This document shows, piece after piece, positions 22,329 through 53,131 of a stretch of DNA of 64,000 nt (its first letter is position 1; each line of letters begins with the position of its first letter). Where the stretch lies: the NCBI GenBank assembly GCA_029856155.1, contig JAHQWL010000102.1, positions 1 through 64,000 of the forward strand, given 5' to 3'. This DNA is from Promethearchaeia archaeon (GTDB lineage Archaea; Asgardarchaeota; Lokiarchaeia; Sigyniarchaeales; SOKP01). The notes under the pieces are model-generated. The model was not told where the DNA came from. It searched no databases and was given only the letters and a program-made list of their open reading frames with translations. The position numbers were made by a program, and so were the translations under genes.

Positions 22329-23573
22329 ATGAATTCTCGAGAACGTGTACTCGCAAGTATTAACCATAAAGAACCTGACAGAGTACCTATTGATCTTGGT
22401 GGTTTTCCAGTTACAGGAATTTCGGCAATAGCATATCATAACTTAAAGAAATATTTAGGATTTAATTCGGGTCAAATTAGGGTCTATGATCTGATGCAAC
22501 AACTGGCTGTTCCGGAAAAAAATATACTCGATTTATTTAAAGTAGATATATTAGATGTCGGAAGCACTTTTAACACTGAAGACGAAGATTGGTATGACAT
22601 ACATCTAAATGGATATGATCTACAGTTCCCAAATTGGTTTCAACCAAGGCATAATCCTGACGATTCATATGATGTTCTCCATCGTGATGGTACAATAATT
22701 GCTAGGATGACAAAGGATGCTTTAGTTTTTGACCAAACGTATTATCCGTGCTTAGAAAATTACCCTGAAACATACGTAGACTTTCAAAAAATGGCTAGTA
22801 AAAATCCTTGGGTAGCACAAGTAACTCCTCCATTTAGTAATATTGGTCAAAAGAGATTTTGGAAAACTTTAAGAAAAAACGCTATTACATTAAAAGAACA
22901 GTCCAAAAAAGCAATAGCACTCAATTTAGGAAGTACATCTTTTGAATTAGCAAGTTCATTTAAAAGATTAGATAAATTTTTAATTGATTTAGTAAGAAAC
23001 ACTTCAAAGGTTGAAAAGTTTCTTGATTTTATGATGGAGTTCTTTTTTAATTCACTCAGTGTAATATGTAGTTATGTGGGAGATGTAATTGATATAATAA
23101 AAATAGGTGATGACCTTGGCGAAAATAAAGGTCCTTTCATTAGCCCCAGAATTTTTCGAGAAATTTTTAAACCAAGAATTACCGAGATATGCGATTTTAT
23201 CAAGAAAAAAAGCTCAATGAAAATATTTTATCATTCCTGTGGGTCTATTGTACCTTTATTGCCAGATCTGATAGATACTGGTATAGATATTCTCAATCCC
23301 GTACAAATAAACGCAAGAGATATGGATCCTAAATTTCTGAAGGATAATTTTGGGGATGAAATTACATTTTGGGGTGGTGGTGCCGATACACGTAATGTTA
23401 TTAATAGAAAAAATCCCGAAGAGGTTAAAAAGCATGTATTAGAATTGCTTGAAATTTTCTTTCCAGGAGGAGGATATGTTTGGAATACAGTTCATAATAT
23501 TTTACCAGATGTCCCCCCTCAAAACATAGTCGCTATGTTTGAAGCTATCGAGGAATTCAATAATAATCTTTAA
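22329..23573 (+). CDS. Uroporphyrinogen decarboxylase/MtaA-CmuA family protein
   Basis: MNSRERV...EPDRVPID start; GDDLG, HSCG, LNPVQ, FWGG, HNI motifs. Confidence 0.85.
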   Translation: MNSRERVLASINHKEPDRVPIDLGGFPVTGISAIAYHNLKKYLGFNSGQIRVYDLMQQLAVPEKNILDLFKVDILDVGSTFNTEDEDWYDIHLNGYDLQFPNWFQPRHNPDDSYDVLHRDGTIIARMTKDALVFDQTYYPCLENYPETYVDFQKMASKNPWVAQVTPPFSNIGQKRFWKTLRKNAITLKEQSKKAIALNLGSTSFELASSFKRLDKFLIDLVRNTSKVEKFLDFMMEFFFNSLSVICSYVGDVIDIIKIGDDLGENKGPFISPRIFREIFKPRITEICDFIKKKSSMKIFYHSCGSIVPLLPDLIDTGIDILNPVQINARDMDPKFLKDNFGDEITFWGGGADTRNVINRKNPEEVKKHVLELLEIFFPGGGYVWNTVHNILPDVPPQNIVAMFEAIEEFNNNL

Positions 23574-39461: not shown

Positions 39462-40715
39462 ATGGTAAAAATATTTGAAGGATTAAGGATCCTTGATTGC
39501 TCACTCTTCAAAACAAGCATTTCGCATTAAGGGGTAAAATTTATCTCGGGTCCATGGACAAGTACATTTTTTGCTGACCAAGGGGCAGAAGTAATAAAGG
39601 TAGAAATTTGAATGCAATTCGCATCCTATACTATAACCCCCACCCTTTGGGGAAGCATTTCGTCTTTTTATTCTTTATGATAAGCCTACATTTCCGTTAT
39701 TTTCTATTTTAAATAGAGGTAAGAAATCTATTTCACTCGATTTAAGAAAAGAAAAAGCAACAGAGATATTTAAAAGGTTAGTAGAAAAATCTGATGTCCT
39801 CATAGAAAATTTTGTTCAGGGGACAATGGAAAAATGGGGATTTGGATACGATACATTAAAGAGATTAACCCTAGGTTGATATACGCAAAAATTTCTGGTT
39901 ATGGAAATGATGGATTGGAAAAATATACTCAGAAAACAGCTTTTGATATAATAATTCAAGCTGAAGCTGGAATTCTCGATGCATTGGGTTTTAAGGAAGG
40001 TCCACCAAAATTACCTATAGCAGATTATACTGCAGGACATATTGCTGCAATCGGGATTAGTCAAGCACTCTATTATAGAGAAAAAACAGGGAAAGGACAA
40101 TTTATCGATATCTCAATGCATGATATAATGTTTTCTATAAATATTAGAGCTCAAGCGAAAGAATTTATTCCAAGAGCTCAACATATCGATGTGGCATCAA
40201 AATATCTACCAGTTTATAATCAATATCATTGCAAAGATGGATTAATTGTATTAACTACTTTAACAGAAAAACAATGGATTCGTCTCTGTGAGAATGTGCT
40301 AAGAAAGCCAGAACTAATAAAAGACACTCGTTTCGATAATGTTATAAAAAGATTTGATTATGTTGAGGTATTGGATAAGATTATTGAAGATTGGAGCATA
40401 AGATTCACTCGTGATGAAGCAATTAAACAATTAGAAGCAGTGAGAATCCCATGTGGTAAAACTTATCGAATAGATGAGGTATATAACCATCCAAATCTTA
40501 AAGAAAGAGGAATGCTATGTGATCAATTTGATTTCTCTAAATGGGGTGTTGAAAAAGCTACGATCCCTAATCGTTTGATAAATTTTTCTGATACTAAGGG
40601 CTCGGTTGAGAGTTCAGGACCTGAATTTGGAGCAAATAATGAGGAAATTTATTGTGATTTACTCGGTTATAATAAAGAAGACCTTAAAAGTTGGAGGCAA
40701 CAAAAGTTAATATAA
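39462..40715 (+). CDS. Family III (CaiB/BaiF) CoA-transferase split by two BHB introns, with a 1-nt deletion near 39858-39860
   Basis: Exons 39462-39504, 39538-39605, 39637-40715 give MVKIFEGLRILDCSQFISGPW...ADQGAEVIKVEPPPFGE...NRGKKSISLDL...DVLIENF...; catalytic-region AFDIIIQAEAG; 396 aa once the missing A is restored. Confidence 0.8.
39505..39537 (+). other. 33-nt BHB intron 1 of the CoA-transferase
   Basis: Central helix GCUC/GGGU, bulges AC^U and AA^A, inner helix CUU/AAG; contains an in-frame TAA; splicing gives DCSQFISGP. Confidence 0.75.
39606..39636 (+). other. 31-nt BHB intron 2 of the CoA-transferase
   Basis: Central helix GUAG/CUAU, bulges AA^A and AA^C, internal AUGC/GCAU hairpin; splicing removes a stop and a frameshift and gives IKVEPP. 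Confidence 0.75.
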
Positions 40716-41158: not shown

Positions 41159-41431
41159 TCATAATACCTTAGCATTCTTTAAAAAAGATTTAACTTCTTC
41201 TTGAGTTGCATTAAATAATTCTGAAATTACCATTAAAGATGTATTTTCATCCATACCCAAATTAGTATAATCTTGATATAATTTTATCCAAGTCTCTTTT
41301 TGGGTATATTTATCTGGATGTTCTGTTTGAATATGTTGCCAATATGGGTGTTGTTAAGCCGTGAAAAATAATTTTTTTCACGATAGCTCAATACCACAAA
41401 AAGGGCAAAACCTTGACTCATCTTCACTCAT
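41159..41431 (-). CDS. 80-aa C2H2-type zinc-finger protein, intron-containing (missed by the ORF track)
   Basis: Exon 1 41431-41384 MSEDESRFCPFCGIEL; exon 2 41353-41159 QHPYWQHIQTEHPDKY...FLKNAKVL*; CxxC...HxxxxH finger forms only after splicing. Confidence 0.8.
41354..41383 (-). other. 30-nt BHB intron in the zinc-finger gene
   Basis: Outer helix GGUAUU/AACACC, central helix GAGC/GCUU, bulges UA^U and AA^C, 9-bp inner stem CGUGAAAAA/UUUUUCACG; two in-frame stops. Confidence 0.85.
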
Positions 41432-52984: not shown

Positions 52985-53090
52985 AGGCCCGTGGCCCAGT
53001 CTGGATAAGATTGCTAGCATTTTGCGACCAATGAAAAGCAGCGCCCTCCTAAGGCGAAGATCGGGGGTTCAAATCCCCTCGGGCCTGCCA
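52985..53090 (+). tRNA. tRNA-Arg(CCU) with a 28-nt intron in the D-arm and encoded CCA
   Basis: Acceptor AGGCCCG/CGGGCCT, anticodon arm CGCC-CTCCTAA-GGCG, T-arm GGGGG-TTCAAAT-CCCCT, 3' GCCA; 78 nt after removing 53010-53037. Confidence 0.85.
53010..53037 (+). other. Non-canonical-position tRNA intron (about 23/24), relaxed BHB
   Basis: Flanking helices CUG/CAG and UUG/CAA; bulges AG^A and AA^G; weak central helix GAUA/UGAA. Confidence 0.65.
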
Positions 53091-53131
53091 TTTTTCATTT
53101 TTGAAACTTTTTAAATTATCAATTTTTCTTT

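Follow-up and report, generated by a model that had tools for sequence, protein, structure and literature searches.

Why do two introns that lie 68 nt apart in one archaeal protein-coding gene carry nearly the same sequence at their core? The gene encodes a family III CoA-transferase in an Asgard (Loki-type) genome of 4.1 Mb and 30% GC (G000), and it lies in the window analysed here, a 64,000-nt stretch of contig C102 (Table 1). The cores of its introns I1 and I2, GCATTTCGCAT and GCAATTCGCAT, are identical at 10 of 11 positions. The original prediction, whose motif coordinates and 10/11 identity agreed with the sequence, took this likeness as a hint of a mini-intron family spreading between tRNA and mRNA, or else of a protein-binding loop. 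Our preferred reading, to which we give a probability of about 0.6, is that a class-wide constraint on the hairpin tip accounts for the resemblance of I1 and I2, and that neither a recent copy nor an exchange with a tRNA-Arg intron does.

Table 1. Features of the window discussed in the text
Feature	Position	Strand	Basis
CoA-transferase family III gene	39462-40715	+	PF02515 matches
Exon 1, CoA-transferase III (MVKIFEGLRILDCS and base 1 of the Gln codon)	39462..39504	+	base-for-base alignment with intron-free orthologs
Intron I1, 33 nt, in-frame TAA	39505..39537	+	BHB geometry; intron-free orthologs
I1 apical element GC-ATTTC-GC(AT)	39517..39527	+	MFE loop C-ATTTC-G
Exon 2, CoA-transferase III (..QFISGPWTSTFFADQGAEVIKVE)	39538..39605	+	PF02515 positions 12-33, E = 1.2e-5
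Intron I2, 31 nt, with TGA, frame-breaking	39606..39636	+	BHB geometry; intron-free orthologs
I2 apical element GC-AATTC-GC(AT)	39614..39624	+	MFE loop C-AATTC-G
Exon 3, up to stop codon	39637..40715	+	PF02515, E = 3e-20 and 3e-53
Intron I3, neighbouring gene, 30 nt, helix GAGC/GCUU, bulges UA↓U and AA↓C	41354..41383	-	G006 ortholog without it
tRNA-Arg(CCU) gene, encoded CCA	52985..53091	+	alignment with 13 orthologs that lack introns or have other interruptions
tRNA-Arg intron, 28 nt, D-arm, between positions 23 and 24	53010..53037	+	ortholog alignment

Two exact inserts in a CoA-transferase gene under selection

By reading frame, the CoA-transferase gene of G000 falls into four pieces. Exons 1 and 2 are in the same frame, with 33 nt containing TAA between them; exon 3 is in the +1 frame after a 31-nt stretch with TGA, and its frame shifts back at an AAA run at 39858-39860. 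We aligned orthologs from 18 genomes, to which four were later added, and the intron-free orthologs define the inserts to the base: their joints read ...TCAC↓AATT... and ...GTAG↓AACC..., and by this measure I1 starts on the first nucleotide of the span 39505-39636 and I2 finishes on its last. Among the orthologs, I1 and I2 are each present or absent as a whole, always with the same exact joint. I1 is carried by nine genomes (G000, G005, G016, G012, G017, G066, G057, G021 and G042) and I2 by ten (G000, G005, G014, G016, G010, G012, G066, G057, G021 and G042), with eight genomes carrying both; both are exactly absent from seven congeners and three outgroup genomes. Once the introns are taken out, the exons run on into the PF02515 matches, and the introns sit, as had been predicted, in conserved motifs (LDCS↓QFISGP and IKVE↓PPP.GE).

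The intron-stripped gene had a dN/dS of 0.04-0.12, the 37 codons of exons 1 and 2 included, and internal stops were found in the intron-stripped orthologs of no genome. Between G000 and G012, 31 of the 37 residues encoded by exons 1 and 2 are identical, with 24 nucleotide differences. These comparisons indicate that the gene is under strong purifying selection. As the gene is in use, judging by its freedom from stops and its low dN/dS, the frame-breaking 31-nt block must leave the RNA. The locus was contained in 20 sequencing runs, including one metatranscriptome with a small share of it.

The locus might alternatively be a decaying pseudogene, with inserts that are ordinary insertions or assembly artefacts, and G000 does carry an additional 1-nt deletion: in this genome only, a single A is absent from the run at 39858-39860 (alignment column 333), one A of an A4 run having gone, which produces the frameshift noted above and makes the old frame stop at 39877-79. 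The deletion may be genuine, or an uncommon error of assembly, or the site may be recoded at a low level, and the G000 copy may, given this deletion, be newly inactivated. The site, UUA AAG, would permit a -1 slip of tRNA-Lys. Against the pseudogene reading, up to 10 independent assemblies have these inserts at identical positions, every other copy of the gene is intact without its inserts (dN/dS about 0.1), and the junctions are exactly those predicted by BHB geometry. Among 742 G000 ORF regions orthologous to G006 we found just one frameshift-like break, so the G000 assembly is not generally error-prone. We consider that the pseudogene reading is hardly credible here, and for the genus it is refuted.

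On a tree built from the exons, both introns are scattered, and many nodes are weakly supported. G008 has neither intron, yet groups with G000 and G005; G017 has I1 only, G014 and G010 have I2 only, and G012, on a deep branch, has both. Because the copies are homologous, each intron arose once, early, and I1 and I2 are both old, with orthologous copies on deep branches of the genus. Their scattered pattern then calls for precise loss on several occasions, or for alleles passed on by recombination. Presence and absence, which it had been proposed to map on a tree, gave no order of origin for I1 and I2 on this exon tree.

Both inserts have the geometry of tRNA-type introns

Each insert has the core of a BHB motif, with two 3-nt bulges on opposite strands and a 4-bp helix between them. 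The central helix of I1 pairs GCUC (39499-502) with GGGU (39532-35), between bulges AC↓U and AA↓A; that of I2 pairs GUAG (39600-03) with CUAU (39631-34), between bulges AA↓A and AA↓C. The pairing of each intron's 3' end with its own upstream exon, which was part of the original prediction, is therefore the central helix itself. Cutting behind base 2 of each bulge (arrows), as predicted, gives exactly the boundaries defined by the orthologs and restores one open frame.

The central helices are also maintained between species. For I2, 98.7% of pair cells were standard in six species, compared with 25-57% for slid partners, and there was one compensatory change from A-U to G-C together with several one-sided switches among G-U, G-C and A-U. 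The central helix of I1 is conserved in five or more species, and its partner GGGU has become GAGU in G012 and G017, improving a U-G pair to U-A.

Beyond this core the structures are less regular. The outer exon-exon helix h is weak, with one G-C pair in I2. The inner helix h' of I1 is irregular, with 3 bp and an internal loop, while that of I2 is a 6-bp stem (GAAUGC/GCAUCC) with loop AAUUC and a 3x4 internal loop beneath. Owing to the weak outer helix and the irregular inner helices, I1 and I2 are relaxed BHB forms. The lower stem of I1 is weak in the G000 copy, and taken alone I1 and I2 fold no better than shuffles (z = -0.8 to 0).

The host encodes two EndA paralogs (PF01974; contigs C13 and C52) and one RtcB (PF01139; C83). 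Asgard EndA is reported to be of the broad-specificity (alpha-beta)2 type, with a loop that confers broad specificity (PMC5829648). A heterotetramer-type splicing endonuclease formed by the two EndA paralogs would cut after base 2 of each 3-nt bulge, RtcB would join the exons, and the spliced product would rebuild ...LDCS-Q-FISGP... and ...IKVE-PPP.... Judged by sequence and geometry, I1 and I2 are genuine BHB mini-introns, for which we infer splicing. Translational bypass or programmed frameshifting was also considered and was rejected, as matching take-off and landing codons are lacking and the BHB cuts give the junctions exactly.

The shared core is a conserved hairpin tip

The shared core of the two introns, GCATTTCGC at 39517-39525 in I1 and GCAATTCGC at 39614-39622 in I2, is the tip of the inner hairpin, where a 5-nt NWTTC loop is closed by G-C and C-G pairs. 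MFE folding returned the GC-closed 5-nt loops that had been proposed for both (Table 1). In composition-preserving shuffles of I1 and I2, a window matching at 10 of 11 positions arose with P = 0.0056.

The tip is kept over considerable distances. In I1, the 9-mer GC-NNNTC-GC is found in eight of nine species, with a compensatory GT...AC (GU...AC in RNA) in G016, and across the nine species, with dS up to more than 1, the apical 9-mer has an identity of 0.91, compared with 0.67 and 0.79 for its flanks. For I2, GC-NNNTC-G(C/T) is conserved in all ten copies. The I1 of G066 also carries the exact 11-mer of the G000 I2. The tips of I1 and I2 wander within one constrained sequence space, and this conservation argues that selection keeps the tip in both introns. 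The option of a functional or protein-binding loop, one of the two that the original prediction had offered, fits best, the tip being the most conserved part of I1. Mimicry of a UUCG tetraloop or a T-loop, looked for by eye in I1 and I2, was discarded, there being no C...G closure around UUCG and no equivalent of A58.

The tip signature recurs in other mRNA mini-introns

From the same genome we assembled a set of 15 mRNA mini-introns, as a convenience sample: I1, I2, I3, those in the genes for AMP phosphorylase, rnhB, dodecin and a ThiS-like protein, two each in rpl11 (a and b) and cdhA (a and b), and those in Roadblock, TFS, C44:81451 and C1:10074. By MFE folding, a 5-nt apical loop of the form A-W-W-T-C/A (A-W-W-T-M) caps nine of the 15. 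Among 5704 hairpins with a 7-bp stem and a 5-nt loop in the whole genome, 183 (3.2%) have such a loop, giving a binomial P of 1.5e-10 for a pattern that was chosen post hoc, from loops already seen. The narrower loop A-W-T-T-Y, set a priori, occurs in three of the 13 other mini-introns (AMP phosphorylase, rnhB and rpl11-a) against a background of 1.8% (P = 0.0016), so that the proposed motif is more frequent in introns than background, as the original prediction had supposed. In the rnhB and rpl11-a introns the closing pair is likewise that of C-AWTTC-G. In the set of all BHB-shaped candidates, 131 of 3436 had the loop compared with 77-117 in controls, a comparison that is uninformative with a list made up mostly of false positives.

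Several members of the set merit individual description. I3 has a perfect 9-bp stem with the loop AAUUA. The two rpl11 introns (G000 C44:~135955-136046, + strand), of 37 and 36 nt, lie 21 nt apart and have similar cores, AAUC-AUUUC-GAUU and AAGC-GUAUC-GCUU, and so make a second pair of neighbouring look-alikes. In the TFS gene (C25:12731-12800, + strand), the best BHB register takes out 28 nt (AUGA/UCAU), whereas the frame of the Zn-ribbon is restored by removal of 30 nt; the cuts would then fall at non-canonical sites, or else the gene is read in some other way. A hairpin with the loop and closing pairs of I2, AGTAGC-AATTC-GCTACT, is also found outside the set, at C25:~22630-22660 (+ strand), in a GC-rich stretch resembling a structured RNA gene.

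Comparison with the congener G006 over 1.6 Mb, made without reference to the motif, revealed few differences and confirmed I2, I3, the AMP-phosphorylase intron and the two cdhA introns. With so few differences, most introns are probably common to G000 and G006. In G006 itself, a 30-nt frame-breaking insert (G006:C1:1505071-1505100) is missing from the G000 ortholog, and intron content hence differs in both directions between congeners. A search by paralogs (tblastn of all ORFs against the genome) gave nine loci with one clear intron. In genome-wide scans combining BHB motifs with restoration of ORFs, candidates in the true register never outnumbered those in registers shifted by 1-2 nt, the signal being swamped by hairpins at ordinary gene boundaries in a genome of 30% GC.

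The introns bear no trace of recent copying

The original prediction of a spreading family of mini-introns was not borne out. A covariance model built from six I2 orthologs, which scores I2 itself at 63.7 bits, did not detect I1 in the window (E<=10, filters off) and gave no second I2-like site in G000; in 54 congener genomes it found one site each, orthologous to I2, in 10, and nothing else. blastn-short in G000 returned no paralogs, with a best off-target E of 0.23 for I1 and I2. In the local alignments of the 91 pairs formed by 14 mRNA mini-introns of G000, the I1-I2 pair, with a score of 9, ranked 7th-9th, and the rnhB intron is at least as similar to each of them (12 with I1, 10 with I2). 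Members of a propagating family should be some 70% or more alike over most of their length, and I1 and I2 are not. We see in these sequences no sign of spreading, or of movement between tRNA and mRNA, at present.

Might the likeness be chance, between two short AT-rich hairpins, with the tRNA match a degenerate pattern drawn post hoc? The genome-wide search that had been suggested, for GCAWTTYGC, gave no excess (75 observed, ~97 expected); the 11-mer pattern was at expectation in the genome (4 observed, ~4 expected), and the 9-mer pattern was not enriched in the window (3 observed, 1.5 expected, with 17 of 100 shuffles reaching 3). A match at 10 of 11 positions is reached by three of the 91 mini-intron pairs, and the Y was put into the pattern so that it would cover the tRNA site. 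For I1 and I2, chance is nevertheless disfavoured by the shuffle P value given above, by conservation of the tip over 9-10 species in both introns, and by the presence of the same loop type in other mini-introns far above background; we hold it to be improbable.

An ancient, local event is a more serious candidate. One intron may have begotten the other in the ancestor of the genus, either through DNA duplication or through an excised circle that was reverse-spliced into a site ~100 nt away and then recombined as cDNA, with all but the selected tip diverging since. The nearness of the two introns within one gene and their joint presence in eight genomes suit such an origin, as do the identical 11-mer that can occur in either intron and the similar cores of the two rpl11 introns; intron families spread by transposition are moreover known from tRNA genes of Thermoproteales, as presented in PMC4090602. 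Other observations speak against it: I1 is invisible to the I2 model at E<=10; the helix partners (GGGU and CUAU), the lengths and the lower stems all differ; the intron of rnhB, another gene, is as similar to I1 or more so; the gene tree gives no order of origin, and genomes with I1 only (G017) or I2 only (G014 and G010) exist; and for the tRNA introns of Asgard archaea, no route by which they are copied was found in a preprint (10.64898/2026.10.13.758758). On balance we think it unlikely that one intron begot the other, and very deep common ancestry could still be a source of the likeness.

The tips could also be kept alike within each genome by ongoing gene conversion or co-evolution of I1 and I2. 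Both introns have the loop ATATC in G012 (L128), and in G057 (L130) the loops are GTTTC and GGTTC, with a G at loop position 1 that is otherwise unseen; within-genome loop matches totalled 31 over eight genomes (permutation P = 0.07). This value is not significant, and the eight genomes are related. Two loop positions differ between the introns in G005 and in G042, and the stem bases beside the loop are consistently different in I1 and I2. Within-genome agreement of the loops would fit gene conversion or a common trans factor, and we judge that there is only a slim chance that such a process explains the resemblance.

A class-wide tip and its relation to known splicing systems

A class-wide constraint remains the reading that we favour. 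On this reading I1 and I2 are two separate, old, tRNA-type (BHB) mini-introns in the CoA-transferase III mRNA, and their common 11-mer is the inner hairpin tip, in which two pairs (G-C/C-G) close a loop of 5 nt whose last bases are UUC or UC. This tip is one form of an A-W-W-U-C/A apical-loop consensus found on most of the mRNA mini-introns in this genome; it may serve as a point of contact with the splicing machinery or with a cofactor, or be required for folding. More tentatively, a dedicated factor may read the tip (GC/CG-closed NWUUC or, more broadly, A-W-W-U-C/A), be it a cofactor recruiting the tRNA-splicing enzymes to mRNAs or a machinery for intron insertion; we lean against so specific a proposal. 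Were it true, a conserved cis signal would act in protein-only archaeal splicing in addition to the shape of the BHB.

In eukaryotes, the HAC1 and XBP1 mRNAs are spliced by Ire1 and tRNA ligase, and have conserved hairpin loops. The mini-introns resemble them in the removal of an mRNA intron by a protein endonuclease and a tRNA-type ligase, as we infer here, and in their conserved loops. In HAC1/XBP1, cleavage takes place inside the conserved 7-nt loops, whereas here the predicted cuts are in the bulges and the loop is away from both.

The nearest archaeal precedent is the mRNA BHB intron in the pre-mRNA of cbf5 (pseudouridine synthase) in Crenarchaeota (Watanabe 2002; Yokobori 2009, PMC2738675), which is cut by a hetero-oligomeric splicing endonuclease (PMC2738675). 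As in cbf5, a protein-coding gene has a short tRNA-type intron that is gained or lost among relatives; unlike cbf5, there are two introns of 31-33 nt in one metabolic gene of an Asgard genus, and they belong to at least 15 mRNA mini-introns in one genome, most of them with a conserved apical loop. In the searchable literature, splicing of archaeal protein-coding mRNA by the tRNA machinery is described for cbf5 alone, compared with at least 15 introns in the one Asgard genome studied here, and an apical-loop signature of BHB introns is described nowhere.

Families of tRNA introns in Thermoproteales have spread by transposition and are ~70% identical over the whole intron (Fujishima et al. 2010, as relayed in PMC4090602 and 10.64898/2026.10.13.758758). 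The original prediction was of this kind, in that BHB introns of similar sequence at different sites would imply copying; here, by contrast, the likeness is confined to a hairpin tip of 9-11 nt, and neither the model nor BLAST finds a second copy. Asgard tRNA genes are heavily interrupted, and no route of intron arrival was found for them (bioRxiv 10.64898/2026.10.13.758758). That study shares with ours the lineage, the enzyme system and D-arm introns missed by annotators; unlike ours, it deals with tRNA genes only, treating protein-coding genes only as neighbours, and reports no apical-loop consensus.

What is new here is the conserved hairpin tip, together with the negative test of propagation. 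These mini-introns are not arbitrary hairpins, as their tips conform to a consensus and show conservation across species, and the tip offers a concrete, mutable element for testing intron recognition and mobility. The idea of visible intron copying is tempered, as none is seen at the sequence level.

A private intron in tRNA-Arg(CCU)

The tRNA gene that had been linked to I1 and I2 encodes tRNA-Arg(CCU); its intron hid it from both ARAGORN and Rfam. ARAGORN intron calls are unreliable at non-canonical tRNA sites, and the loop statistics given above cover mRNA mini-introns. The G000 genome has a tRNA-SeC and numerous interrupted tRNA genes.

The predicted similarity holds in part. The motif does lie inside the 28-nt intron, which contains GC-ATTTT-GC (GCATTTTGC at 53017-53025), but the likeness to I1 and I2 is weak, GC-ATTTT-GC being all that they have in common, and no canonical BHB register with at least three of four central pairs gives the 23/24 junction defined by 14 orthologs. 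A relaxed BHB motif is possible. Transfer between tRNA and mRNA, which the similarity had suggested, finds no backing in so short a match and in an intron without a canonical register. blastn-short in G000 returned no sequence related to this intron, with a best off-target E of 3, and the Y in GCAWTTYGC had been fitted so as to take in the tRNA-Arg site. Chance is the leading reading for the motif match of the tRNA-Arg intron.

Among the orthologs examined, the intron at 53010-53037 is present in G000 only, and G005, the closest relative, is intron-free. The tRNA-Arg(CCU) genes of G006 (L102) and G017 (L106) have another intron, of 30 nt, farther 3', between the variable region and the T-stem. 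With these differing introns in G000 and in G006 and G017, tRNA-Arg(CCU) is interrupted at several sites within one genus. In G012, G020 and G021, BLAST pieces suggest yet another interruption of this gene, in the T-arm.
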